Shown here: positions 17,221-28,763 of the stretch, one piece after another
Numbering within the stretch: the first letter of the stretch is position 1
How the letters are laid out: each line of letters starts with the position of its first letter
From: Leptonemataceae bacterium
GTDB lineage: Bacteria > Spirochaetota > Leptospiria > Leptospirales > Leptonemataceae
Direction: 5' to 3'
Assembly (NCBI GenBank): GCA_965227295.1
Contig: OZ245742.1
Span: 192,001 to 256,000 of the forward strand
DNA length: 64,000 nucleotides
Program-made: the position numbers and the translations under genes
Notes under the pieces: model-generated
Databases searched by the model: none
Told to the model about the DNA's origin: nothing
The model's input: only the letters and a program-made list of their open reading frames with translations

Positions 17221-17482
17221 AAGAGTTTATGTCCCTTTCCCGCGCACGGATGCAACAAAAATACGTCAAAACGCGTCAAATTCACCGTAGACCCCGTTTG
17301 GCGGGGATATCCACGAAATAATCCTTGCTTTTCCTCTGGTTTTTCGCGGAAAATTCCCGGAGAGCCGCAGAAATTTGACACGTTGTGTTGATTCCGTCGC
17401 TTATATCACCGATACAAATTCTGAAGCGGCGAAAATACGCCGTTCGTGAGCGAAACCTCGTCTGAATAAGAAGGTGCAGATA

Positions 17483-18400
17483 ATGAAACAACTGACGTTC
17501 CTGATTTTAAGTCTGATCGTGACCGCCCCCCTGATGGCCCAGGGCGGCCAGGGACCGCAGGGAACCGGCCAGCAGAACTATACGAACCCGGCCAACCCGA
17601 CTCCGTACGAAGCGACCCCCGGTGAACTGGTCTCTGAAGAAGTAGACCTGAACCAGCTGACCCCCGAGCAAAAAGTCATCCGCGACCGTAACTTACGCGC
17701 GGAAGAACTCTGGAAAAACGCGGACTACCGCGATTACAACAAGGCGTTCGCCGAACTGCATCAGCTTTCGCGTGCGTTCGCCAACAACAAGTATCGCCTG
17801 GCCCTGTCGGCCTACCAGTCCGGCGTAAACACGATCATCAAAATGCGCGACGAAGTGGAACTGTTCCGCAAGCAGTCGTCCGAAGCGAAGTACCTCAACG
17901 AAAAGTGGTACTGGCAGATCGTAGACCGGAAAGCGCGTGAAGAGCGGCAAATCAACCGCAAGAAGCGCACGGCGAAACTCGAAGCGGTGACCTACTTTAC
18001 CCGGGCCATCAACCACCTCGACGAAATCCGGAACCCGGACCTTCGCGAAAAGCCGGCCTTCAAGCGCCTGCTCTCCGCGGTCTACCGGAACTGGGTGATG
18101 TATCAGTTCGACCTGGGCAACCTGCCGCAGTGCATCCCGATCCTCGAACTCTACATCGAGATCGACGAGAACGAGAAGGAGTATCCGGCGCACAAGTATC
18201 TGGCGCAGTGCTACGCCTTCCAGGAAATGATGATCAAGAAGTACGGCGTGGGCACCGAAGACCAGATGTTCCGCTTCCGTTACAAGAAGAACGTGCATTT
18301 ACTCCGTGCGGCCGAACTGAAATACGGTAAGGAATCCGCCGAATACAAGCACGTTGTGAACCTGGTGAACCGCGACGAGATCATCTCGGTCCAACCGTAA
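17483..18400 (+). CDS. fcpA: Flagellar coiling protein A
   Basis: Signal peptide; [62 protein letters not shown] match recalled Leptospira FcpA; AGAAGGT RBS. Confidence 0.92.
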
Positions 18401-18438
18401 CAACTACCAAACACCACTTATTCAGAGGGTGACAAACG

Positions 18439-18471
18439 AACCCGGCGCCGGAAAACGGCGCCGGGTTTTTT
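18439..18471 (+). terminator. Rho-independent terminator of fcpA
   Basis: Stem aacccggcgccg / cggcgccgggtt, loop gaaaa, T-run. Confidence 0.88.
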
Positions 18472-18535
18472 GGTATATGTTTAGTTGTGCACTGTGCCCG
18501 GCGGGCGGGAGGTTCACTGGAATGCACGACGAATC

Positions 18536-21500
18536 TTACAGGGAAGAAACCCGGTCCGAGGTCTCACCGCTCAAGTACCGTTTTCCGGTAAGGACCCCCG
18601 TATTGATGAGAACATCCGGGGCGTAGGTGAACAGCGATTGCACGAACCGCTGCTGCAAACTCGGGCGCAGTATCACGGCCTCGACGAACTCATTTCCGTG
18701 CACGGCGACGGTGCGCGCCACGTCCCTGGCAGCCGGCACGAACGCATGCGCCTGGACTGCGTCGTCAGCGATACGAACACCGCCCACCCCCGAAGCTCCT
18801 GCCGTCGCCGGCCCTTTTTGAAACTTACGCAGGGTAACGAGACCCAACGCCGCACCGATCCCGGCATCGATGCCCACCAGCCCCCAGTCCACGCTTCCGT
18901 TCTCCACCTGTTGGGTGATGGCGGAACGAGAGAAAGATTCCACCGCGGCGCCGGCTACGCTGGTAATTTGATGCAGAGTCGCCTGGCTTAACTTTACGCC
19001 GGCCTGCGCGGCCCGACTGGAGAGCAGCGCGGCCTTCGTTGCGCCGGCCACAAAACCGCCGAAGACTCCGGACGCCGCCCCGATCCCGATGGAAATTCCG
19101 AACTGCGCCCAATCCCAGGCCGCTCCGGTAAGGACGACCTCGATTCCGTAAGCCAGACCGCTGATGACGACGCCGGTCGTCACACCGACGGCCACCGCGG
19201 AGGCGATGCTACTGGCCGCGACCGCCGCCGCAGCAGCGGAAGCCGCCGCGGCCGCCGAACTCGCGGCGGAAGCAATCACGCCCGCCAGGAACGGCAGAAA
19301 GAACAGGTTTCCGCCCGGGTCGGAGTACGACACGGGATTGTTGCCGGCAAAGGCATAACGATTGATCGACGCGGCGTGAACCGTGTTCGTGCCGAACGTC
19401 AGGGTGTCGGCCTGAAGAAAGCTGCCGATCGCAGGATCGTAGTAGCGCGCATGAAAGAAGTACATGTCCGCGTCGCGATCGTACTCGTTGTTGTTGAATT
19501 TCCCGCGGAAGATGTCGCGGCCGTCGCTCGATTCCTGATAGACTTCGCCGTACGGTTTATAAACGGTATGCGCGACCTCCTTGCCGTCGGCATCCGTAAC
19601 CAGGCTCGTGGAACCGACCTGGTTGTACTGGAAATAGAAGGTCCCTTCTTCCGGGTAACCGTAGCCGTTCCCCCCGGGCCCCAGGAGAAAGTTAAATTCA
19701 AAGAGCTCACTGCCCGGCGGCGCCAGCGGGAACAGGGGAACGTTCCCGGAACCGCTCGTGCCGCACTGAATGCTGAGCGACAGCACCGCCGTCGCGAGAA
19801 TCGGAGCCGGCCAGAGAATTCGGCGACGGCGCCGCTGGTACGACGACACGCGACGACCGGCGTAAAGGATTGCGGCGGTCAGGGAAGCGGCCACCGCCAG
19901 CGCCAGCAGGACCAGCAATCCGACGCGCGCCGTCGCGGGATCCCGAACATAGGCCATCGTCGTATGACTCAGAAAACCGCTCAGGCCACTGATGCTGCCC
20001 ATGTTGTACATCTGCGCCTGGAGAGCGTGGCCGGCACTCGTTCCGTGAATCAAGGCGACGGCGCTTGAATCCGTGGAAATGGCCGCAATGCGACCGCCGG
20101 GTCCCTGCACGTACTCCGTGCTGAGAATGTCGCCGCCCGCGAAGCGCGTCACTTCGAGTTCCCGGTTCACATAGATGGTTTCGTTGCCGTTGCCGTCGAG
20201 TTTTCGAACGCGATCACCGCCGGCATCATACTCGTAGCGTCCGGCCAGCATCCCGTTCCGGGCGACCTGCCGGATCTTGTAGCGACCATCGTAGTCGAGC
20301 TGATAGACGTTCCCGTCGCCGGTCCGGCGTTCGATCACGTTGCCGTGCCCGTCGTACTCCAGGGCAAGGCCGTTGCTGCCGCTCACCGGCCGGCTGCCCT
20401 CGTAAGTTAAGGTGAGATCACCCTTACGGTTAAGGTTCCCCTCACTCGTGTACTCGTAAGTGATTTCTCCGTACGGACCGACCGCCCGCGTCAGATAACC
20501 GAAACCGTTGTAGGAGTACGAGGTATCGTTGTCACCGATGAGGTCTTCCACACCGGTCACCTGATGCATGGCGGTCCAGGTGTAGCGCTGGTCCAGCAGA
20601 TCGGCGGAATCGGAGTCCGTCGTATGGATGGACTGTACCCGGCCGACGACATCGTACGTGAAGTCCGTCGTTACGCCGTTGCCGTAAACGATCTGCCCCG
20701 GCTGAGCGCGCGCCGTATAGTTTGCATAGCGGGCGAAGACCGGCGCGTTGGAATCAGCGCAATCGTTCACGGCGACTTTGATTTCCGCGAGATCGCCGTT
20801 GTCGGCGTAGTCGTAGCAGGCGATCCGCCCGGAGGGGTACCGAACTTCCTGCGGCCGATCCAGGGGATCGTTGCGGTACTCCATGACATGCGTTCCACCG
20901 CTCCCGCCGTCGAGAATCAAACGCGTTACCGCCGGATTGCCGTTGGCATCGTAGGAATATTCGCGGCGGGATGTTTCGGAGCCGGAGGCGTTGCTCATGA
21001 CGGCGGCGGTCATCCGAAATTGCGCGTTCGTGAAGGCATCGTTGTCGTACTCGAATCGCGCGGAGCTGCCGTCGTGGTACGTGACGAGAGTCTTGCGGCC
21101 GAGGTCGTCGTGGGTGAAGCGTTTGTCTTCGCCGTTGTGTCGCTCAAGCTCAAGTAATCCGCGATGATCGTAATAGTAGTCCGTCGTCCCACGCTCGCTG
21201 TTCTGTACCCGGGTGCGGCGCCCCAGAGAGTCCCAGGTAATGTGGGTGTAATTCGAAGCGGCGTCGCTGACCGTCGTTAACCGGTCCAGCTCGTCCCGGA
21301 AGAATCGCTGGGCGATGCTCGTGTTCGTATCCAGGTCGGTCATGTAGATGACCTGGTCGACGCCTTTGAAGTTTCGACAGCGGGTAATCTGCAAACGCGA
21401 CGCGGCCACATTGTGATCTTCACGCAGTTCCGTGAACCGTTCGAGGCCGGGTTCACAGTAGCCCTGGTATCCCGGGCCGGCACCGTGGACGGTGCTGATC

Positions 21501-24500
21501 ACGGCTCCGCCCGGCACAATCACCCGGGCGGCGCGATGATAGGCGTCGTAATAGTAGTGCGTCCAATCCGGAGTCTCACCGCTCCGATGAACGGTGGACT
21601 CCTGCAAGACCTCGCCCCGTAAACCGTAGTACTTCAAACGAACGCGCAGGTCGCTGCCGGCACCGGTCTCACTGCGCACAACCCGCCCCAGGCCGTCAGC
21701 CACTTCCCGCCCCGAAGTCATCCCGGCATCGTCCCAGCTCTGCCGTACCTGCGAGACGGTCACATAGAAACTTCCGTCCCGGCCGTAGCTGCGCCCTTCG
21801 ACCTGCACGATACCATCCGGCCCGGTCCGATAGACGGCGACCGGGCGACCGAATCCGTCGTACTCAATGCGCCGGACATTGCCGTCAGCGTCCGTTTCTT
21901 CAGCGGGCCCGCCGTAGCGCGCGTCAAACTCCTGTCGCTGCGTGAAAGTCTTACCGGCGGCGAAGACCCGCTTGACCCACGGATACGTATGATACGTCGA
22001 CTCGTAGTTGATCAGTTCAACGGCGCCGGACGGCCGCTGGATCTGCGTACGGTTGCCGTAGGTATCGTAGTCATAGTGGCTGGTCAGCCAGTCGTTGCGG
22101 CTGCTGTCGAAGTCGTGCCGCCGAATGACGTTCCCCGCACTATCGTGATCCACGGTGAACTCGGTCATTCGATTCGAGCAGGCACATGCATCACCGGAAA
22201 GAGCGCAACCGGTTCCGACGACGGTTCCTGCCAGGGGTCCCGACCGCTGGTTGATGCTGTCGTTGGCGTAGTTCGAACATGTTTGCAGAGTCCGATTACC
22301 GTCGTTCTCGGTCAGCAGGGCGAGATTGCCGAGGCTGTCGTACTCAAAGTCCGTGGTGTTCGCAATGGAGCCGTCGTACATGTACTTGCGGACGACCTGT
22401 TGCACAAGCCTCGGTGCATAGGATCGAGCGGCAACTCCCGGAACCCAACCCCACTGGTGGTCCACGGAAGAGATCAACGCGCCTGCCGTATGTCGCGTGG
22501 TCTCACTCAGCGACCGACCCACCAGGGGAAAGACGACACTGTAGTCCGTCGTCGTCACGTTACGTTCACTCGGGGCAGTAGTCGTCAAACGCAGGAAGCC
22601 CTGAAAACCGCGGCCCCCCGTATGGAGCGTGGCACCACGATAATCATACGTGCGTTGGATCGTGTGCACCTCGGTGCCGTCCGGGCCGGCTGTCGGCACG
22701 CTCCGCGTATACGTATGCAGCACCGGCAGGGGCGAACTCAGGGCGCGGTGACCGGCCGGAAAATTCATGCCGCTGTTCGCATCGTACTCCGTCAGGCGGC
22801 GATAGCTGAACTCGTGCGTAAGGCTGCCCTGTAAAATCGTTGCGACGGTGTCGTTGGGTTTCGCCTGAGCAACCGGGGAGCTGAAATATATGCGAAAGCT
22901 GGATGAGGTGTCGTTGTCCCAGCTGCTGTGCTCCTGGCGAATAAAGTCCGAACGCCCGTCGCCGTCGAAGTCCCCGGGAATCAGAAAGGCCCCCGGGTCC
23001 GCCCGGAGGTCCCACTGATAGATCCGCCCCTGCGGCTCCAGATAATCGAAGGTCCCGTCCCCGTGCGAAACATAGACCGCAAAGTTTTCGGTCCCTCCGT
23101 CGTCCCAGGCGCCTTTGGTCTGCCGCATAAAGTCCGTGCGGCCGTCGCCGTTGTAGTCCAGGGGAATGATGTTGGCTCCGTTGTCGAAGCGCAGTTTGTC
23201 CTGGTAGATGCTCCCCGGGGGCGAAACGATGTGAAAGTAACCGTTCCCGATGGAAAAGTATACGTTGAACGTATCGAGGTTATCGTCGTCGAGGCGGCCC
23301 TTTTCCTGGCGAATGAAGTCCGTCTTGCCGTCGCCGTTAAAGTCACCCGGAATGATGTTAGCGCCCTCGTCAAAGCGCAGCCAGGCCTGGTACTGAAGAC
23401 CCTCGGGACGGACTTTCTCGAAGGTTCCGTCCCCCTTCGAGAAATACACCTCGAAGGTTCCCACGTTATCATTGCCCCAGACGTTGTGCTCCTGGCGGAT
23501 GAAGTCGGTCATCCCGTCGCCGTTGTAATCGCCGGGGATAATGATCGCGCCGTGGTCCGCCCGCAGGTTGTCCTGATACATTACGCCGGAAGGTGTCCGA
23601 ATGTCGAAGTAGCCGTTCCCCAGCGAGAAGTAGACGTTGAAGGTGTTCGAGTTATCGTTATCCCAGCTGCCTTTTTCCTGGCGGATAAAATCGGTCATGC
23701 CGTCGCCGTTATAATCGCCGGTAATGATATTCGCGCCGGGATTGAAGCGCAGCCATTTCTGATACCGGGTGCCGGCCGGTTCGACGACCGTAAAGTACCC
23801 GTCGCCGTTTGAGAAATAAACCTGAAAGGTACCGCTGTCGTTGCTGCCCCAACTGCCTTTTTCCTGGCGAAGAAAGTCCGTCTTGCCGTCGCCGTTGAAG
23901 TCGCCCGTGATGATGTTCGCACCCGGATCCAGCCGCAGAAGATGTTGGTACGGATCGTTCTTAGCCCCCTGCACGCCCGGGACGACGATGTCGAAATAAC
24001 CGTCTCCCCGGGAGAAATACACCATGAACGTGTCCGTACGGTCCCCGCCCCAACTGCCTTTTTCCTGACGAATGAAGTCCGTCTTGCCGTCGCCGTTGAA
24101 GTCACCCGGGATAAGCTTCGCGCCCGGATCGTAACGAAGGCTCCCCTGATAGGCGGTGCCCCCGGGCATAACCATTCGAAAGCCGCCGTCTAACGATTGC
24201 TGATCGTTCCAGGTGATTTCAATCGGATCGAGGCAGCGCGTCCCATCGCACTCCTCCACGGTTGCTAACTGTGAACGGCCGGAAGTTACTCCGACCCCGT
24301 AATAAAGAAAGTACTGCTTGTATACGCCGTCTGCTGTCGCGCTACGCACGGACTTCAATCGAAAACGCATGCGCGCTTCCCCGGTACCGTCAAAAAAGAT
24401 CACGTGATCCTTCGGCGAACTTACGGCGTCGTACTCGAGGGCCACGTGGCGATTCGGATAAACGATACGCAGTAGCCGGGCCATGCCGCCGGCCTGGTCG

Positions 24501-25216
24501 TAGACGTAAGTCAGCGCGTTGCCGTTGCGATCTCGAATGTTGCTCAGCATCCATTCGCGAATCGGACGCGTCCCCTGACTCGTGCTATCCACGGTGTAGA
24601 CCCGCGAGTCGGACGTGCCGCCGTACACGCGGACGTGTCCGTCGCTCGTATGCACCTCGAACTGACACGGGCCGCCGCCGCAATTTCCCGACGGCACAAC
24701 GTGGCTGTAGTCTTCGACTTCTTTGCTGTAGGTATTGCCGGACCAGTAGCCGGCGTCGTCGCTGTAGGCCTGCCGTGCGACCAGGCGCGCGCCGTCGAGG
24801 CAGAGCCGATCGCGGTTCGTGTAGCTGACTCCGGAGGGCCGGCCGTCCACGGCAAGGCTCTGCCCGCAACGTTGCATCGCGGATAGACCGCTCAGACGCC
24901 AGCCGACGCCGGTACTGCTTGTGCCGGTACTCTGGCTATTGTAGACGAGGGCGAGTGACGGCTGCAGGCCCTGGATGCCCGGGGACGCCTGGATGGGAAT
25001 GCGAAAGGTCGCCGCCCCGGCCGGGCTCGCCGCGAACTGCCCGGAGATGTTGCCGCCCGCCGTGTACGGCAGCCCCGAGCTGCCCGTCGCCCCCTGCGGG
25101 GCAAATAGAAGCAGGGCGGCAGCAATGAATGCCGCGGCAACGAAACGGCGCGGTAGACTGTGAGTAAGATTATGGAGCTGTTTGTGGGAGCGAAACATGG
25201 ATGCAGGACCTCGCAT
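18536..25216 (-). CDS. Large RHS/YD-repeat protein: signal peptide, SpvB-like N-terminus, FG-GAP repeats, YD shell, RHS core, hydrophobic C-terminal cargo
   Basis: GAATFRIPI..PG..GLQPSLALVYNSQ...GVGW; RGFQGF; many YD dipeptides; YFFHARYYDPAIGSFLQAD; NNPVSYSDPGG; ATG at 25216 or 25198. Confidence 0.9.
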   Translation of the reverse strand: MRGPASMFRSHKQLHNLTHSLPRRFVAAAFIAAALLLFAPQGATGSSGLPYTAGGNISGQFAASPAGAATFRIPIQASPGIQGLQPSLALVYNSQSTGTSSTGVGWRLSGLSAMQRCGQSLAVDGRPSGVSYTNRDRLCLDGARLVARQAYSDDAGYWSGNTYSKEVEDYSHVVPSGNCGGGPCQFEVHTSDGHVRVYGGTSDSRVYTVDSTSQGTRPIREWMLSNIRDRNGNALTYVYDQAGGMARLLRIVYPNRHVALEYDAVSSPKDHVIFFDGTGEARMRFRLKSVRSATADGVYKQYFLYYGVGVTSGRSQLATVEECDGTRCLDPIEITWNDQQSLDGGFRMVMPGGTAYQGSLRYDPGAKLIPGDFNGDGKTDFIRQEKGSWGGDRTDTFMVYFSRGDGYFDIVVPGVQGAKNDPYQHLLRLDPGANIITGDFNGDGKTDFLRQEKGSWGSNDSGTFQVYFSNGDGYFTVVEPAGTRYQKWLRFNPGANIITGDYNGDGMTDFIRQEKGSWDNDNSNTFNVYFSLGNGYFDIRTPSGVMYQDNLRADHGAIIIPGDYNGDGMTDFIRQEHNVWGNDNVGTFEVYFSKGDGTFEKVRPEGLQYQAWLRFDEGANIIPGDFNGDGKTDFIRQEKGRLDDDNLDTFNVYFSIGNGYFHIVSPPGSIYQDKLRFDNGANIIPLDYNGDGRTDFMRQTKGAWDDGGTENFAVYVSHGDGTFDYLEPQGRIYQWDLRADPGAFLIPGDFDGDGRSDFIRQEHSSWDNDTSSSFRIYFSSPVAQAKPNDTVATILQGSLTHEFSYRRLTEYDANSGMNFPAGHRALSSPLPVLHTYTRSVPTAGPDGTEVHTIQRTYDYRGATLHTGGRGFQGFLRLTTTAPSERNVTTTDYSVVFPLVGRSLSETTRHTAGALISSVDHQWGWVPGVAARSYAPRLVQQVVRKYMYDGSIANTTDFEYDSLGNLALLTENDGNRTLQTCSNYANDSINQRSGPLAGTVVGTGCALSGDACACSNRMTEFTVDHDSAGNVIRRHDFDSSRNDWLTSHYDYDTYGNRTQIQRPSGAVELINYESTYHTYPWVKRVFAAGKTFTQRQEFDARYGGPAEETDADGNVRRIEYDGFGRPVAVYRTGPDGIVQVEGRSYGRDGSFYVTVSQVRQSWDDAGMTSGREVADGLGRVVRSETGAGSDLRVRLKYYGLRGEVLQESTVHRSGETPDWTHYYYDAYHRAARVIVPGGAVISTVHGAGPGYQGYCEPGLERFTELREDHNVAASRLQITRCRNFKGVDQVIYMTDLDTNTSIAQRFFRDELDRLTTVSDAASNYTHITWDSLGRRTRVQNSERGTTDYYYDHRGLLELERHNGEDKRFTHDDLGRKTLVTYHDGSSARFEYDNDAFTNAQFRMTAAVMSNASGSETSRREYSYDANGNPAVTRLILDGGSGGTHVMEYRNDPLDRPQEVRYPSGRIACYDYADNGDLAEIKVAVNDCADSNAPVFARYANYTARAQPGQIVYGNGVTTDFTYDVVGRVQSIHTTDSDSADLLDQRYTWTAMHQVTGVEDLIGDNDTSYSYNGFGYLTRAVGPYGEITYEYTSEGNLNRKGDLTLTYEGSRPVSGSNGLALEYDGHGNVIERRTGDGNVYQLDYDGRYKIRQVARNGMLAGRYEYDAGGDRVRKLDGNGNETIYVNRELEVTRFAGGDILSTEYVQGPGGRIAAISTDSSAVALIHGTSAGHALQAQMYNMGSISGLSGFLSHTTMAYVRDPATARVGLLVLLALAVAASLTAAILYAGRRVSSYQRRRRRILWPAPILATAVLSLSIQCGTSGSGNVPLFPLAPPGSELFEFNFLLGPGGNGYGYPEEGTFYFQYNQVGSTSLVTDADGKEVAHTVYKPYGEVYQESSDGRDIFRGKFNNNEYDRDADMYFFHARYYDPAIGSFLQADTLTFGTNTVHAASINRYAFAGNNPVSYSDPGGNLFFLPFLAGVIASAASSAAAAASAAAAAVAASSIASAVAVGVTTGVVISGLAYGIEVVLTGAAWDWAQFGISIGIGAASGVFGGFVAGATKAALLSSRAAQAGVKLSQATLHQITSVAGAAVESFSRSAITQQVENGSVDWGLVGIDAGIGAALGLVTLRKFQKGPATAGASGVGGVRIADDAVQAHAFVPAARDVARTVAVHGNEFVEAVILRPSLQQRFVQSLFTYAPDVLINTGVLTGKRYLSGETSDRVSSL
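22880..24140 (-). repeat. Seven tandem ~62-aa (186-nt) FG-GAP/VCBS-like coding repeats
   Basis: Consensus LRxDxGAxIIxGD(F/Y)NGDGxTDFIRQEKGxW...TFxVYFSxG(D/N)GxF repeated seven times. Confidence 0.9.
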
Positions 25217-25298
25217 AGTGTGGCGAGACCCTCGGTCCAGGAACGGGAAACTCAAACGGAATCGGGAAGGGAATACGGAGATTTCGACAAAGACTCTC

Positions 25299-27470
25299 CT
25301 ATAGAGAGACTTTGGAATCCCCGCGATAATCCCCCGGAAAGCGCCGGTACTCCACACGCAGCAGCGACAGATCATCCACCAGTTCGCCGCGCCGCTCCAG
25401 CTCTTCCTGAATGGCCGCAAGATTGCCACCCGTGCGTTCGACGATTTCGAGAAAGCGACCGGGGGCGGCGGCAACCACGGACTTACCCGATGGCTGCAGT
25501 ACGCGCAGATCGTCCCGGCCGTCGGAGCCGGCGATGAGTACGTCGCCGGGTTCCAGCTGAATCTCCGCAACGACGGACTCCGGCACGTAGACCACGTTCG
25601 CACTCCCCCGAACAGTCTCGGCGCGGTCCACATCCAGCGAACCGATGGGATCCAGCGTCGCTTCGAGCACGCGGCGCGCCCGACCCGCGCGAAGTAACAC
25701 CGAAGCCGGATGGCCGGCATTCACGACGTAGGTCCGACCGGTGCGCTCTTCGGTAAGTCCGGCGACGAACGAGATCATCATGCGACCCTGAAACGAACGA
25801 AAGACGCGGTGCAGTTCCTCCACCAATCGCAGGAGCCAGTCCGAGGGCGCCCGGGTCCAGGGCGGCAATTGCCCGTCGGCGGTAATGTCCAGGAACGCGC
25901 GAAAGGCGGTGGCGAGAACCACGGCGCCGCTCGCCCCCTGCACGGACTTGCCCATGGCGTCGGCGTTCATCCAGGTGACGCAGGCCTCACCGTTAAAGTG
26001 CAGCTCCTCGGCCATGCAGAGGTCTCCGCCCAGTTCGCCTTCAAAGCCGCGAAACTCGAAACGTTTATGCTGACGAATGAACGAGTCGACGTAGATGCGC
26101 TCCGTATCCACCGTCCCCCGGGCCATGGGTTCCAGCACGCGGGAGATCAACAGATAGTCGCCGTCCTGTTGTTCTTTGAGGCGACTAACTTCTTCTAAAG
26201 ATCGCCTTAGCTCGGCGGTGCGTTGGTCCACCAGGTCCTCCAGGCTGTGGACATAGGTTTGCAAACGTTGATGTGCGAGCTGCAGTTCGTTCTGAATGCG
26301 ATCGTAGCGCCGCCAGACCGTAACGCCGGTGGCAATAAGTAACAACGAAAAACCGTACTGGGCCAGCGGTCCCGGCCACCACGGCCAGATGCCCAGGGCC
26401 CACAGCGCATCGCCCAGGCCCGGCAGGAAAAACAATCCGATGCCGGCCACCAGGATGCGCACCTCTCGCGGACCGCGACGCAGTACGTGGATCACGACGT
26501 AAATCGAAGCGAAACCGGGCACGAGCACCGCGTATAGATAGGCTCCGAACGTAGCCCGCGCCGGGACTAACGTTAGATTCACCAGCATAAAAGTTAGCGC
26601 CATCAACGTAAGCGTCCACGCCAGCAAACGCGCCGGTCGCGAACGCTCGGACACCCGTTCCAGAAACAGGGCCAGTGCCGCGGGCATCCAGTACAACGAA
26701 AAGTGCTCAATGTAAAACCACAGCAGCGGCACCGGTATGATGACGTGCTGCAGCCGCATGCTGCGATTGCCGATCATATACAATCCCACCGTCAGGCAAA
26801 AGAGCGCGAACGTCGCGTACACCGTCTCGTCCCGCGCCCGCAGGAACACCAGAAAGCCGCCGATGCCCGCGATGATCGCGAGCACACCGATCAGAAATCG
26901 CCCCACGTCCCGGCGCACGATGCGTTCCAGCAACTCCGCGCGACAGCCGAGGATCGGCGGGCCCCCGTCGATGCCGACGTTGCGAAAGTCCGACCAGATT
27001 TGCAGACTGAACATGCGTCGCCCGTCCGGGCCGGGGCCCGCCGAATTCGCGGCACCCGATGCACGCGACGCCGCCGGCAGCGGAATGAGATGATACGGCC
27101 GGCCGGCAAAACCCCGCGGACCGACCTCCGGATTGCCGAAGCGATAGATCTCGCGACCGTTCCAATGCGCGGTAAAGCTGAGATTGATGACGCCGAAGTA
27201 CACCGCGGGTTCGCTGCAGTTGTCCACCGGCGGCAGTTCCCGGCGCAGGTACAATCGCGTGGGTTCGTGAATGCGAAAAAAGAGTTGGTGCGGCCGGTCC
27301 GGGGATACGTCTTTCCAGTCGGCGTTGCGGGTGCAGGCACTTTCGTCCGGGCGGCAGACCTGCCAGCCGTCGGCGAGTGCGAACTGCGATGCGTTGTCCG
27401 GATTAGACGACGGCTGACACGAAAGTGCAAAAGCAAGCAGGAGCAAGACGCAGGCTGAGAACCGATGCAG
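25299..27470 (-). CDS. Membrane PP2C/SpoIIE phosphatase with lipoprotein signal, beta-sandwich sensor and 7TM region
   Basis: LAFALSC lipobox; about seven TM helices; QQDGDY, GGDLC, ADAMGKSVQGA, NAGHP, SDGRDD, DDLSLL; start inferred as CTG at 27470. Confidence 0.85.
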   Translation of the reverse strand: MHRFSACVLLLLAFALSCQPSSNPDNASQFALADGWQVCRPDESACTRNADWKDVSPDRPHQLFFRIHEPTRLYLRRELPPVDNCSEPAVYFGVINLSFTAHWNGREIYRFGNPEVGPRGFAGRPYHLIPLPAASRASGAANSAGPGPDGRRMFSLQIWSDFRNVGIDGGPPILGCRAELLERIVRRDVGRFLIGVLAIIAGIGGFLVFLRARDETVYATFALFCLTVGLYMIGNRSMRLQHVIIPVPLLWFYIEHFSLYWMPAALALFLERVSERSRPARLLAWTLTLMALTFMLVNLTLVPARATFGAYLYAVLVPGFASIYVVIHVLRRGPREVRILVAGIGLFFLPGLGDALWALGIWPWWPGPLAQYGFSLLLIATGVTVWRRYDRIQNELQLAHQRLQTYVHSLEDLVDQRTAELRRSLEEVSRLKEQQDGDYLLISRVLEPMARGTVDTERIYVDSFIRQHKRFEFRGFEGELGGDLCMAEELHFNGEACVTWMNADAMGKSVQGASGAVVLATAFRAFLDITADGQLPPWTRAPSDWLLRLVEELHRVFRSFQGRMMISFVAGLTEERTGRTYVVNAGHPASVLLRAGRARRVLEATLDPIGSLDVDRAETVRGSANVVYVPESVVAEIQLEPGDVLIAGSDGRDDLRVLQPSGKSVVAAAPGRFLEIVERTGGNLAAIQEELERRGELVDDLSLLRVEYRRFPGDYRGDSKVSL

Positions 27471-27486
27471 CAGAAAAACCTCCGGT

Positions 27487-27810
27487 TCAGCGCAAGTCCG
27501 CTTCCGAATCCAGGAAATCGATGCGGCCGCCCAGGCGCGCCAGTTCGAACAGGCCGCGCAGATTCTCGGGCACCGCCAGGAGGGCGAAGGCACCGCCGCC
27601 GTCGGCGATCTGCTTGCGCCAGTGAACGATGGCGGCGATGCCGCTGGAGTCGATGAAGTCCAGGTCTTCCAGGTCCAGGGCAAGGCGCATCTCATCTTGC
27701 TTTAGGAAGTTGTCCAGCAGACGCGATGCTTCCGGAACCGTGTAGAGATTCAGATCTCCCTTCAGGGCGACAATCTGGTAACCGCCGGCCGATCGAACTA
27801 AAAACTCCAT
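27487..27810 (-). CDS. STAS-domain anti-sigma factor antagonist
   Basis: LKGDLN, LDLEDLDFIDSSGI with the phosphorylatable Ser. Confidence 0.9.
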   Translation of the reverse strand: MEFLVRSAGGYQIVALKGDLNLYTVPEASRLLDNFLKQDEMRLALDLEDLDFIDSSGIAAIVHWRKQIADGGGAFALLAVPENLRGLFELARLGGRIDFLDSEADLR

Positions 27811-27908
27811 TCGGTGGATATGAGGTACGGGGAAAAACCGGCACAGTCAAGCCGATTTCCCTTGAAAATCCAGCCGAACACGACGGCACTAGACAGGACT
27901 GTTCTTCT

Positions 27909-28763
27909 ATGTATGCCATCGGTGAGTTCTCACGCAGGACGGGGTTGTCCATCCGGGCGCTGCGTTTTTATGATCGCGAAGGCATCCTGCGTCCCGCCCT
28001 GGTCGACGAAGACACGGGCTATCGTTATTACCAGCCCACCCAAATGCTCGACGCGGAGAAGATTGTCTTCTATCGCAACTGCGATCTACCCGTAAAGACC
28101 ATCGGGGAGCTCTTAAAGGCCCAGGCCGTGGGCGACGAACCGACGATCTTACGCATCCTGGAAGAGCACGAGGAAACTTTGCGCGAGCGCACGGCCAGCA
28201 TGCAACGCATGCAACGCTGGCTGCGAAACCTGCGACTGGAACACGCCGACGGAGTCGCTGACCGCCACGCCGGGGGCACCATTGAGATCGTCGACGCCCG
28301 GCCGCGGACCGTGGTGGTATCGAAGGGTTTCGGCGGCTACGATGACGTCTTTCCCCTCATCGAAGAGCTGATCGACTTCGCACTGTCGCAGGCGGATTTG
28401 AAGATCGACGGGCATCCGATGTTGCTCTGGGGCGAGGCCCTGGACGCGGATCGAACGCGCGGAGGGGCGACGGCCGTAGAAGTGGCCGTGCCGGTGACAG
28501 GGCGTTTCCGGCCCACGACGGAGCTGTTGCGTCGCAAGCTGACGGGCGGCCCCGTGGCCCGCCTCGTGTTTCGCGGTCCGCGCTCGGAATCCGGAGTGCA
28601 CTACGAGCGATTGTTCAGCTGGATCTTCGAGAACGACTGCCGGATTAGCGGTGGGTTTCGCGAGATCTTTTTGAATAGCCCCCGGGATGTAGGCGAGGCG
28701 CAGTATCTGACCGAACTCCAGGTCCCGGTGCTGGTGCCGGAGGCCAGGCGCGGCTCACAATAA
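27909..28763 (+). CDS. MerR-family regulator with GyrI-like effector domain (BmrR-like)
   Basis: MYAIGEFSRRTGLSIRALRFYDREGILRP..VDEDTGYRYY; C-terminal REIFL...YLTELQVPV. Confidence 0.9.
   Translation: MYAIGEFSRRTGLSIRALRFYDREGILRPALVDEDTGYRYYQPTQMLDAEKIVFYRNCDLPVKTIGELLKAQAVGDEPTILRILEEHEETLRERTASMQRMQRWLRNLRLEHADGVADRHAGGTIEIVDARPRTVVVSKGFGGYDDVFPLIEELIDFALSQADLKIDGHPMLLWGEALDADRTRGGATAVEVAVPVTGRFRPTTELLRRKLTGGPVARLVFRGPRSESGVHYERLFSWIFENDCRISGGFREIFLNSPRDVGEAQYLTELQVPVLVPEARRGSQ

Follow-up and report, generated by a model that had tools for sequence, protein, structure and literature searches.

The window, that is, the whole 64,000-nucleotide stretch of DNA that was analysed, belongs to contig OZ245742.1 of a Leptonemataceae bacterium and carries on its minus strand a gene for a large RHS protein. 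The ORF that holds it (18536..25720, minus strand) is open throughout on translation, and residue numbers are given along this longest form, which runs from 25720 and has 2394 aa. In that form it overlaps the upstream gene, whose end is at 25299, and the gene start was taken to be M169, the position where homologues start, with a signal-peptide-like N-terminus. From the 5′ to the 3′ end of the gene, the features are the following:

18539..25216 (-), whole gene, a TcB-TcC-like fusion of 2226 aa with SpvB region, FG-GAP beta-propeller, RHS shell, core and cargo
25085..25159 (-), N-terminal Sec-type signal-peptide-like segment SLPRRFVAAAFIAAALLLFAPQGAT, aa 188-212, hydropathy peak 1.97
20078..20095 (-), GRIAAI, last strand of the YD shell before the insertion, aa 1876-1881, located by sequence
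19925..20077 (-), first part of the insertion, aa 1882-1932, helical according to the AF2 prediction
19856..19924 (-), TM1, candidate transmembrane helix VGLLVLLALAVAASLTAAILYAG, aa 1933-1955, with a Kyte-Doolittle 19-residue peak of 2.57, the highest of the protein
19820..19855 (-), Arg-rich basic loop RRVSSYQRRRRR, aa 1956-1967, which doubles as the n-region of the second segment
19766..19819 (-), second hydrophobic segment (h2) ILWPAPILATAVLSLSIQ, aa 1968-1985, ending in a lipobox-like S-I-Q before the Cys
19763..19765 (-), Cys1986, candidate lipid-modified +1 cysteine, from its conservation
19640..19762 (-), linker rich in Gly, Ser and Pro between Cys and core, aa 1987-2027, of fairly constant length in the family
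19307..19639 (-), RHS repeat-associated core (plug and aspartyl autoprotease), aa 2028-2138, by TIGR03696 (Rhs_assc_core)
18539..19306 (-), C-terminal cargo, aa 2139-2394, a Gly/Ala-rich hydrophobic domain, by hydropathy
18536-18538 (-), stop codon of the RHS gene

The protein matches the Pfam families SpvB (3.1e-15), FG-GAP_3 (3.2e-21) and RHS_repeat (2.6e-18) as well as TIGR01643 (RHS/YD repeat), while TcdB_toxin_midN stays below threshold (16.9 bits vs 24.8). Among 342 PDB matches at E<=0.001, RHS and Tc structures are on top, and the best Foldseek matches are TcdB2-TccC3 (6sup, 6h6g, 4o9x; E ~1e-41, TM-score 0.68, aa 946-2145). We therefore have an SpvB region, a beta-propeller and an RHS/YD beta-sheet shell with a TcdB2-TccC3-like fold, the shell being modelled by AF2 with a pLDDT of mostly 85-96. 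Signal-peptide-like N-termini are common to most homologues, and 41 of 56 full-length representatives have a hydrophobic 12-mer within their first 70 aa. The core scores 58.7 bits against TIGR03696 (cut-off 32.5) and ends in a DPxG-type motif; the autoprotease residues R2092, D2105 and D2134 are invariant in an alignment of 27 sequences (A1). Moreover, D2134 aligns with Asp2729 of the mosquito protein SGS1, and the N2138/L2139 junction with its 2733|2734 site, both as reported for SGS1 (PMC9935623), and the core is predicted from this alignment to cleave itself between N2138 and L2139. For the cargo there is no match to a Pfam family. Searches among proteins of 449-2000 aa, which are weak evidence, did not find it in other contexts, and the ESM Atlas clusters that it matched were all unnamed, at a recognition score too low to be useful.

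The neighbours of the gene are a 7TMR-DISM/SpoIIE protein and an unrelated convergent gene, and no TcA gene adjoins it. The only TcA of the genome (~4.99 Mb) lies in a true Tc locus with BC and TcA (C1:4986828-5003269), and the canonical Tc-type BC protein beside it has neither a signal peptide nor a hairpin of the kind described below, nor does that locus show a hydrophobic cargo. A BC protein of a Tc toxin adjoins TcA and is produced in the cytoplasm without a signal peptide; the RHS protein has no TcA beside it and a signal-peptide-like N-terminus. Nor does the locus resemble a classical polymorphic toxin-immunity pair, in which a same-strand immunity gene lies directly downstream: no immunity-like, co-directional, coding-like ORF was found downstream of either of the two hairpin-bearing copies in this genome, both of which are directly followed by convergent genes.

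An earlier, sequence-only reading of the window had claimed an insertion of about 140 residues between the last YD strand (GRIAAI) and the start of the core (FYFQYNQVGS), and 146 residues indeed lie between them (19640-20077). The parts that it listed, a hydrophobic helix, a basic n-region, an h-region and a lipobox-like Cys (codon 19765-19763), are all present in the translation. From the last aligned YD repeat to the core there are 175 residues here vs 32 in the solved RhsP chain 8h8a, which sets the insertion at about 143 aa relative to that chain. It was also right that RHS shells do not normally carry such a segment, because 49 of the 82 RHS proteins of our first search lack one, as does 8h8a. 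The last shell strand that AF2 models with confidence stops at about aa 1885, and confidence is low across the insertion (pLDDT 33-63), including two helices within aa 1882-1932 (model residues 950-959 and 965-980, pLDDT about 50-63). This N-terminal part (HALQAQMYN...GFL.HT.MAY) is conserved only in close relatives. TM1 stands out in hydrophobicity: its summed biological-scale value of -2.37 is the lowest of the protein, and we read it as a stop-transfer transmembrane helix. The loop that follows has 7 K/R and no D/E when delimited as 22 residues, slightly into both flanking segments, and is read as cytoplasmic.

The sequence-only reading had named missing conservation of the Cys and the basic patch in homologues as a ground for refutation, and the feature passed this test: 21 of 24 aligned homologues have the Cys, among them those of Leptospira interrogans, L. 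alexanderi and L. koniambonensis; the same 21/24 figure holds for the order TM1, basic loop, h2, Cys. Of the first-search proteins having a pre-core hydrophobic segment, 27/33 have the Cys and 6/33 keep the hairpin without it; the module can therefore do without lipidation. When a profile was built of it and searched against 1.84 billion cluster representatives, it returned 278 at E<=1e-3, 52 at E<=1e-10 and 5 at E<=1e-30. In the best 150 of the 278, the aligned Cys column holds Cys in 134, a gap in 14 and another residue in 2, a count that is biased by the profile having been built solely from Cys-bearing sequences. An upstream helix equivalent to TM1 is found in 124 of 127 representatives, and the hairpin module is found in Leptospira, other Leptospirales and Polyangiaceae. 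In an alignment of 15 Cys-bearing sequences with 19-61% identity (A2), Cys1986 is the sole invariant column outside the core. All but one of the 27 Cys-bearing proteins have their core 23-51 residues after the Cys; in the exception, P0035, the distance is 153. The loop between the hydrophobic segments ranges from 1 to 89 residues and the helices are conserved in hydrophobicity alone, not in sequence, as is to be expected for a cytoplasmic loop and lipid-facing segments. By sequence, the pre-core hairpin and Cys define a subfamily of RHS proteins. Matches in Mycobacterium and other Actinomycetota (query residues 50-121, ~36% identity) cover a hydrophobic and basic stretch only, and were set aside as compositional.

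All topology calls are plain hydropathy and charge counts. Hydrophobic segments always number two per hairpin-bearing protein (P0029 was inspected by eye), which would leave shell and core on one side of the membrane. TM1 is the most hydrophobic segment in all seven proteins tested, with summed scale values of -1.3 to -6.0, and a segment as hydrophobic as this should partition into the membrane during passage through SecYEG. Of 124 representatives, 111 have a loop of net positive charge (median +4), and the 15 residues after the Cys have a net charge of <=0 in 116 of 134; the loops of pathogenic Leptospira are weakly charged, with 1-2 K/R vs 2 D/E.

A lipobox follows the consensus [LVI][ASTVI][GAS]C and is succeeded by a flexible tether. 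Among the 134 Cys-bearing representatives, position -1 is G in 52, A in 25, S in 14, Q in 18, N in 18, D in 4 and another residue in 3, so that G, A or S account for 91/134; F, L and V predominate at position -3, glycine (52) or serine (35) stands at +2 in 87/134, and a hydrophobic h-region precedes the Cys in 131. These statistics match the consensus and the tether. The lipobox of the RHS protein itself is S-I-Q-C, with n- and h-regions present and an atypical Q at -1; the nearest relatives share this Q and Leptospira has N, both residues being atypical for LspA substrates, and even D stands there in four representatives. We also looked at the 163 higher-confidence N-terminal lipoprotein-like signals of the same genome, where position -1 is A in 71, G in 26, H in 17, S in 16, T in 8, V in 7, L in 6, Q in 5, F in 4, N in 2 and Y in 1. 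Since Q, H or N thus occupy -1 in 24 of these 163 candidate signals, SIQ-C is a plausible lipobox in this organism. At -2 and -3 of the same signals H, Q and N seldom occur, and the internal Cys1986 site passes the filter that selects them. The genome has one match to lspA and two to lgt. Another RHS ORF, of 2576 aa, bears a classical N-terminal lipoprotein signal (...LTIAC-GGSSGG), so that, judged from this signal, lipid anchoring of RHS cocoons occurs in the same genome. In the 2226-residue protein the signal is not at the N-terminus of the precursor but begins at about aa 1956 of 2394.

Putting together the sequence features, their conservation, the charge asymmetry and the canonical lipobox statistics of the family, we infer membrane insertion, topology, lipidation, cleavage and a purpose for the hairpin. 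Our leading reading, which we hold with no more than even confidence, is that a Sec-exported, Tc-toxin-like RHS cocoon carries a hairpin whose second arm is an internal type II signal peptide. On this reading, a stop-transfer helix and an internal lipoprotein signal, probably processed by Lgt and LspA, would tether the closed pole of the cocoon to the cytoplasmic membrane of the producer. The N-terminal signal peptide would export the SpvB region, the propeller and the RHS shell, about 1700 residues, across the cytoplasmic membrane until TM1 (aa 1933-1955) halts transfer. The Arg-rich loop would be retained in the cytoplasm, and the second hydrophobic segment would restart export, placing the core (plug) and the hydrophobic cargo on the side of the shell, where they could close it. 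Cys1986, in its lipobox setting, would then be found on the outer side of the membrane, open to diacylation by Lgt and to an LspA cut before the Cys. Two chains would make up the resulting cocoon: the shell, held by the helix at its C-terminal end, and the plug, held by its lipid, which would already have cleaved off the cargo and enclosed it. Where the Cys is missing, the protein would remain a single chain that the hairpin anchors. Its purpose may be to keep the closed pole of a container with membrane-active cargo at the membrane of the producer, the plug gaining a lipid handle of its own. Against this reading, TM1 would still hold the shell after LspA cleavage, which would make it hard for such a complex ever to leave the cytoplasmic membrane.

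A bolder form of this reading likens the maturation to that of a polyprotein: Sec export would proceed in two instalments with the stop-transfer helix between them, and the LspA cut would sever the shell, which keeps a helical anchor at its C-terminus, from the plug, which would become a lipoprotein that already cages a membrane-active cargo. We put this forward tentatively and would not be surprised to see it fail. Were it true, the lipid on the plug could be a handle for sorting, holding or uncorking the container, and there would be a TcA-free principle of delivery or arming for Tc-like toxins, present in pathogenic Leptospira. Processing at internal signal peptides into separate chains is familiar from viral polyproteins, and we found no description of it for bacterial toxins in the literature searched.

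Four other explanations have to be weighed. Both segments may simply stay in the cytoplasmic membrane as an anchor, in one chain and without processing by signal peptidase II, the Cys having a role elsewhere, for example in lipidation without cleavage, in a disulfide or in packing at the membrane interface. The six members that have both hydrophobic segments and lack the Cys agree with this, and so does the uncharged run before the Cys, whose length (median 18 residues, IQR 16-19) can span the membrane; Q, N or D at -1 in 40 of the 134 representatives would also be unfavourable for LspA by the consensus above. Nevertheless, no residue of the insertion other than the Cys is invariant in A2, and the excess of small residues on both sides of it (G/A/S at -1, 91/134; G/S at +2, 87/134) is hard to explain without the lipoprotein pathway, while the occurrence of Q, H or N at -1 in the N-terminal lipoprotein-like signals of the same genome weakens the point about LspA. 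We regard such an unprocessed anchor as unlikely, if a serious contender.

Alternatively, the helices might be sheltered inside the shell or packed on it and later insert with the hydrophobic cargo into a target membrane, a function that would resemble that of the N-terminal TM domains of prePAAR T6SS Rhs effectors. Helices of the RHS fold need not be inserted in a membrane to be hydrophobic, because the cryo-EM structure of SGS1 has predicted TM helices embedded in a Tc-like shell (PMC9935623), and another study (10.1101/2020.10.28.356139) describes Rhs effectors of the T6SS whose TM domains are implicated in passage through the target membrane. A hydrophobic Gly/Ala-rich cargo nearly always accompanies the hairpin: such tails are found in 31 of 32 hairpin-bearing vs 17 of 49 hairpin-less proteins (Fisher p 5e-9, a value that is too strong because the proteins are related), and among the representatives the cargo is hydrophobic in 83/101 and hydrophilic in 18/101. 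Gly-rich tails of like kind also occur in some hairpin-less RHS proteins. On the other hand, hairpin proteins have N-terminal Sec signals and their TM1 should leave SecYEG for the membrane; the charge asymmetry, the loop length of 1-89 aa and the canonical lipobox would have no rationale inside a shell; and the helices of SGS1 lie after the core, in the cleaved cargo, whereas here they precede the core and are still attached to the shell. On balance we consider sheltered helices improbable.

The sequence-only reading had also pointed to an in-frame GTG at 19849 as a start for the signal peptide, from which a stand-alone lipoprotein of 437 aa with core and cargo could be initiated as a separate product. 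The codon (V1958) is present at 19849-19847, five codons ahead of the Arg run, the 18 bases before it contain no Shine-Dalgarno-like motif, and a genome-wide scan of start codons lists it as a candidate lipoprotein start. Moreover, six of the 134 Cys-bearing representatives are short, with a called start just before the signal (among them P0186, P0192 and P0253), and could be split forms or contig-end fragments. The internal start did not hold up in relatives, however: the site was located in four related copies, and all four lack a start codon at this position (-5). One (L007) has none in the 22 codons upstream, two (L009 and L010) have only an ATG 20-21 codons upstream, and the paralogue within this genome (L002) has starts at -14, -12 and -10, with a GGAG-like motif ahead of the ATG at -14; a fifth copy (L008) went unscored because the pattern missed the site there. 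A search for shorter proteins returned 12 matches, of which P0083 and P0084 span the insertion and are read as contig-end fragments and P0085 matches the core alone, so that across the insertion only contig-end fragments came up, and a core without a shell has no known fold or function. A separate product is thus very hard to credit.

Finally, a functionless chance stretch of low complexity, or an artefact of assembly or gene fusion, is next to inconceivable: a loose lipobox-like pattern is expected 0.24 times in 2226 aa, but this reading is refuted by the conservation of the module, which occupies one and the same site in 278 cluster representatives of several phyla; both paralogues carry it on one closed 5.94-Mb contig, and a composite pattern (TM helix, >=4 K/R with a net charge of at least +3, hydrophobic segment, Cys, then a non-hydrophobic stretch) occurs only five times in the 2343 coding-like ORFs of the genome (1,038,402 internal residues), two of the five being the homologous sites of the RHS protein and its paralogue.

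We then set the preferred reading, a membrane-tethered cocoon with an internal lipoprotein signal, beside known systems. The BC subunits of Tc toxins (Photorhabdus TcdB2-TccC3, PDB 4O9X, 6H6G, 6SUP; Yersinia YenB-YenC2) share the SpvB-type N-terminus, the FG-GAP beta-propeller, the RHS/YD shell, the core with its R..D..D autoprotease residues and a C-terminal cargo, whereas the RHS protein adds a signal peptide, a pre-core TM hairpin with a lipobox and a hydrophobic cargo, and has no adjacent TcA. The proteins of a 2012 survey (PMC3482391), which counts spirochaetes among its taxa, share the architecture and the predicted Sec export, and the available part of that survey makes no mention of a pre-core TM or lipobox element. 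Bacterial lipoprotein signals handled by Lgt, LspA and Lnt have the same basic n-region, h-region, lipobox Cys and Gly/Ser-rich tether, but they are N-terminal, and here the signal comes about 1800 residues into the protein, after a stop-transfer helix. The core of SGS1 is among the best PDB sequence matches of the RHS protein (E 1.3e-9), and its Tc-like RHS shell with predicted TM helices and its hydrophobic cargo parallel our protein and its tail; its helices follow the core and lie inside the shell (PMC9935623), and no lipobox, basic loop or pre-core helix appears there. The prePAAR T6SS Rhs effectors (RhsA of Pseudomonas protegens, PDB 7Q97) combine an RHS cocoon with transmembrane helices and match in fold; there, these helices sit at the N-terminal end of an effector that is cytoplasmic and chaperone-bound, and are proposed to enter the target membrane, whereas the RHS protein is Sec-exported and has its helices, with a lipobox, ahead of the core. 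In teneurins, which match the RHS protein in fold and core, an alpha-helix likewise tethers the YD shell to the membrane. These, however, are eukaryotic type II membrane proteins of different biology whose one TM helix is N-terminal, whose autoprotease is inactive and which have no lipobox.

In the literature searched we found neither a description of a pre-core hairpin with a lipobox in an RHS toxin nor the phrase 'internal lipobox'. The hairpin with its lipoprotein-type Cys suggests a so far undescribed way to anchor, and perhaps to cut, a toxin container at a membrane. The question concerned is how Tc-like cocoons that have a signal peptide and lack TcA are handled after export in diderms, including the multi-copy RHS proteins of Leptospira, and a hairpin with a lipobox exactly at the junction of shell and plug offers a concrete, testable answer on where the container is located. 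If LspA cuts at the Cys, this would be a natural internal lipoprotein signal peptide, by which one precursor gives two membrane-anchored chains, and any prediction of where leptospiral surface and vaccine candidates localise would have to reckon with a lipidated C-terminal fragment. In genome annotation such proteins are named 'cytoplasmic membrane protein' or 'type IV secretion protein Rhs'.

The first 168 codons of the longest ORF of the RHS gene overlap the end of the upstream gene (25299), and the N-termini of homologues coincide with M169, where a signal-peptide-like sequence begins (MRGPASMF...RRFVAAAFIAAALLLFAPQGATG). We therefore read the gene from M169. Automatic gene calls may over-extend the protein by these 168 codons (window 25217-25720, minus strand).

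The RHS gene and its neighbours (window positions; aa numbers from the longest ORF)
17474-18400, plus strand: convergent neighbour, 308 aa, secreted-looking, no Pfam family
18536..25720, minus strand: longest ORF of the RHS gene, 2394 codons
18539-25216, minus strand: RHS gene as read, 2226 aa, start M169 at 25216
aa 233-409, minus strand: SpvB (Pfam)
aa 2054-2137, minus strand: RHS repeat-associated core (NCBIfam, 58.7 bits against a cut-off of 32.5)
aa 2139-2394, window 18539-19306, minus strand: cargo, 256 aa, Gly/Ala-rich, hydrophobic
25299-27695, minus strand: upstream neighbour, a 7TMR-DISM_7TM and SpoIIE (PP2C-type phosphatase) sensor
27726-28763, plus strand: further upstream neighbour, a MerR/GyrI-like regulator

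Pfam also recognized FG-GAP/FG-GAP_3 repeats and RHS repeats in the protein, and TcdB_toxin_midN as a sub-threshold match only. For aa 946-2145, AlphaFold2 gave a model from an alignment of 27 sequences (mean pLDDT 82.8, pTM 0.76) whose top Foldseek matches were the TcdB2-TccC3 cocoons 6SUP, 6H6G and 4O9X (E ~1e-41, TM-score 0.68), followed by T6SS Rhs effectors, teneurins and mosquito SGS1. Domains and structural matches together identify the protein as a TcB-TcC-like fusion, a toxin cocoon.

The sequence-only reading had placed an insertion of about 140 residues just before the core, with a hydrophobic helix and then a Cys, and all of these are present, the Cys codon at the very position given (19765-19763). 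From GRIAAI to the core we counted 146 residues; the distance from the last aligned YD repeat to the core is 175 residues, against 32 in the solved RhsP chain 8H8A, which therefore puts the insertion at about 143 aa, matching the earlier estimate.

Anatomy of the insertion (all on the minus strand)
aa 1876-1881: GRIAAI, the last YD strand
window 19640-20077: insertion between GRIAAI and the core, 146 residues
aa 1933-1955: TM1, VGLLVLLALAVAASLTAAILYAG, with a Kyte-Doolittle 19-mer peak of 2.57, the protein's highest
directly after TM1: basic stretch RRVSSYQRRRRR
between RRVSSYQRRRRR and Cys1986: second hydrophobic segment ILWPAPILATAVLSLSIQ
codon 19765-19763: Cys1986
Cys1986 up to the core: post-Cys stretch GTSGSGNVPLFPLAPPG...
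from aa 2028: FYFQYNQVGS, core start

The first part of the insertion is a helical region kept in close relatives only. AlphaFold2 models the whole insertion as four or five helices with pLDDT 33-63; the shell (model residues 11-940) lies mostly at 85-96 and the core at about 80.

A first search with aa 1860-2140 as the query returned 81 proteins. TM1, the basic patch, the second hydrophobic segment, the Cys, a Gly/Ser-rich linker and the core, the elements of what we call the hairpin module and the core behind it, follow in the same order in 21 of 24 aligned homologues, among them those of Leptospira interrogans, L. alexanderi, L. koniambonensis, L. hartskeerlii, L. licerasiae and L. semungkisensis; P0014 (Saprospiraceae), P0015 (Vitiosangium) and P0029 have both hydrophobic segments and no Cys. 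When the 230 residues before the core were scanned in 82 proteins (query included), 33 had a strongly hydrophobic segment, with a second segment ending in Cys in 27 and without it in 6, and 49 had none, in agreement with the earlier statement that RHS shells do not normally carry such a segment. A profile alignment of the insertion from 15 members (19-61% identity to the query) left the Cys as the sole invariant column outside the core, an invariance partly due to selection, as the set was picked among Cys-bearing proteins. This profile matched 278 of 1.84 billion cluster representatives at E<=1e-3, 52 at E<=1e-10 and 5 at E<=1e-30, and in the best 150 of the 278 the aligned column holds Cys in 134, a gap in 14 (partial matches) and another residue in 2. 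The Cys and the basic patch thus pass the conservation check proposed earlier, which gives partial support to the earlier interpretation of a membrane tether or signal peptidase II site; its internal GTG start is not supported.

The module is widespread in Leptospirales, pathogenic Leptospira included, and is present in Myxococcota: named members come from L. licerasiae, L. stimsonii and two Polyangiaceae MAGs, and a 'Leptospirales bacterium' MAG encodes the proteins closest to the one in the window. An RHS-core match was found in 99 of 151 sampled genomes of the order, and many Leptospiraceae matches start at query residues 90-115, upstream of the Cys (query position 127). The organism's own genome, one contig of 5.94 Mb, holds two module copies, the RHS protein and its paralogue P0008 (at 5.57 Mb); four other RHS cores in it lack the module. 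Some 35 loci in Mycobacterium and other Actinomycetota (L019-L053) match query residues 50-121 only, at ~36% identity, probably through compositional similarity to a conserved mycobacterial membrane protein. Judged from sequence, the protein is a Tc-like RHS cocoon into which a membrane hairpin and an internal lipoprotein signal appear to be built. In the literature searched, with subscription journals largely outside it, we found no report of a TM or lipobox element ahead of the core in RHS proteins and no use of 'internal lipobox'; Leptospira RHS proteins appear there as table entries only. The accessible part of Zhang et al., 2012 (PMC3482391) treats the lipobox in contexts other than an RHS pre-core element, and that of the lipocone paper mentions RHS in general terms only.

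Our leading reading, which we hold with about as much confidence as doubt, is that the module forms a membrane hairpin that tethers the plug pole and, in the Cys-bearing majority, is processed by Lgt and LspA. Inserted co-translocationally, TM1 would act as a stop-transfer helix, the basic loop would stay in the cytoplasm and the second segment would serve as an internal type II signal, so that the cocoon is fixed by its closed (plug) pole to the cytoplasmic membrane of the producer. After Lgt and LspA have acted, the shell would retain a C-terminal helical anchor, and the plug, now lipidated, would hold the caged cargo. The sequences themselves show the anatomy of the module, its conservation, the charge asymmetry and the lipobox statistics; membrane insertion, topology, lipidation, cleavage and purpose are inferred from them. 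The genome encodes LspA (Peptidase_A8, 73.2 bits) and has two Lgt matches. Lipoproteins follow a classical lipobox consensus and typically have a flexible tether after the Cys, and the Cys context of the 134 representatives looks like this pattern: position -1 is G in 52, A in 25, S in 14, Q in 18, N in 18, D in 4 and H, F or Y in 1 each; position -3 is F in 32, L in 30, S in 18, T in 14, V in 13 and others in the rest; position +2 is G in 52 and S in 35; and the 11 residues before -1 are hydrophobic in 131. The window protein reads S-I-Q-C, with an unusual Q at -1. When the same genome was passed through a crude home-made filter, unvalidated, for N-terminal signals made of K/R, a hydrophobic stretch and a Cys, 1041 raw candidates came out, reduced to 650 distinct Cys sites and 477 in coding-like ORFs; we retained the 163 that start with ATG, are no longer than 32 residues and continue in a hydrophilic stretch. 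At -1 these have A (71), G (26), H (17), S (16), T (8) and V (7), and more rarely L (6), Q (5), F (4), N (2) and Y (1), while the combined count of H, Q and N is only 5 at -2 and 2 at -3. Because Q is found at -1 and these residues are rare at -2 and -3, xQC looks like a minor but real lipobox variant in this genome. Candidates such as MKRIIFIAMMLILVATFVQC-GGAKPK and MYHRILLSILCLLTLSLWQC-SSSQED resemble genuine lipoprotein signals, and the internal RHS Cys site passes the same filter. His ranks third at -1, which, if real, would be unusual lipobox usage for the lineage. A stable hairpin anchor that is left uncleaved would suit the 6 of 33 proteins without the Cys and the Q, N or D at -1 in 40 of the 134 representatives; we consider it rather unlikely.

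The topology proposed for a tethering hairpin agrees with several features. Most homologues have an N-terminal signal peptide. Of 56 full-length representatives, 41 show a hydrophobic 12-mer within the first 70 residues, and in some of the others the start was probably mis-called. P0026 lacks the 12-mer, and the longer member of its cluster, P0102, starts MKRYVGFFFLSVSFLFLFNF. TM1 is the most hydrophobic 19-mer in 7 of 7 proteins, with summed biological-scale values of -0.8 to -6.0; on the same scale the cargo segments of the window protein are marginal (+2.1 to +2.6), close to the +2.7 of its own signal peptide h-region. In a chain exported through SecYEG, a hydrophobic segment like TM1 becomes a stop-transfer anchor. 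The loop after TM1 carries a positive net charge (median +4) in 111 of 124 representatives, and the 15 residues past the Cys have a net charge <=0 in 116 of 134, charges that read as a positive-inside pattern. Two hydrophobic segments are always present in the first-search proteins that bear the hairpin (in P0029 by eye), and two are required if shell and core are to lie on the same side with the cocoon closed. The loop varies from 1 to 89 residues (median 19) and the helices are conserved in hydrophobicity only, more as expected of segments that face lipid and a loop in the cytoplasm than of a packed protein interior. Helices sheltered in or on the shell, to act later on a target membrane, have a precedent in SGS1, for which the accessible part of PMC9935623 describes predicted TM helices inside the shell; the lipobox, the Sec signal and the strongly hydrophobic TM1 speak against this, and we find it doubtful. 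The in-frame GTG at 19849 pointed out earlier exists, as V1958, but a lipoprotein translated separately from it is very improbable, as related copies do not share this start codon. In L007 none of the 22 upstream codons is a start, in L009 and L010 the only one is an ATG at -20 or -21, and the paralogue copy L002 has start codons between -14 and -10, one of them behind a GGAG-like motif; the site could not be located in L008. Six short representatives (P0174, P0186, P0192, P0212, P0221 and P0253) have their called start immediately ahead of the internal signal peptide, and could be either contig-end fragments or natural split forms in which core and cargo make up a stand-alone lipoprotein. The insertion pattern is more than chance, an explanation we consider negligible: in 1,038,402 internal residues from 2343 coding-like ORFs of this genome, a loose filter for K/R, a hydrophobic stretch and a Cys gave 111 matches, or 0.24 expected per protein of this size, and the composite of a TM helix, at least 4 K/R with a net charge of at least +3, a hydrophobic segment, a Cys and a non-hydrophobic continuation occurred only 5 times, twice in the RHS protein and its paralogue at the homologous place and 3 times with the Cys between hydrophobic stretches, in ORFs of 359 to 1102 aa.

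Core residues R2092, D2105 and D2134 are invariant in the 27-sequence alignment, D2134 aligns with SGS1 Asp2729, and the N2138|L2139 junction aligns with SGS1 2733|2734; the accessible part of PMC9935623 gives Asp2729 as the last catalytic residue and 2733|2734 as the proposed self-cleavage site. Because of this invariance and alignment, the cargo is probably cut off and caged, as in Tc toxins. No Pfam family matched aa 2139-2394. With one truncated protein set aside, 31 of the 32 first-search proteins that bear the hairpin have a hydrophobic tail, compared with 17 of the 49 hairpin-less ones (Fisher p 5e-9, an association overstated by the relatedness of the proteins). Since 18 of the 101 representatives with scorable tails have hydrophilic ones (83 are hydrophobic), and similar Gly-rich tails occur in some hairpin-less RHS proteins, including L003 of the same genome, the link between hairpin and hydrophobic cargo is strong, not obligatory. 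The cargo tails of hairpin-bearing proteins parallel the sheltered 'TM helices' of SGS1, and the cargo may be a pore-forming or membrane-active domain. No co-directional downstream ORF, as a candidate for immunity, was found at either copy (window 17300-18600; G000:C1:5576000-5579500), and a convergent gene directly follows each hairpin-bearing RHS gene.

Outside the window, the genome has a canonical Tc locus (G000:C1:4986828-5003269), in which a BC fusion of 2555 aa, with a hydrophilic tail and neither signal peptide nor hairpin, is directly followed by a TcA-like ORF of 2904 aa (TcA_TcB_BD 346.7 bits, VRP1 64.1 bits). A fourth RHS ORF, L004 (G000:C1:464531-472261, 2576 aa), begins with a classical lipoprotein signal (...LTIAC-GGSSGG), so lipid anchoring of RHS cocoons would already be a theme in this organism, whose cocoons appear to be lipid-anchored in two different ways.
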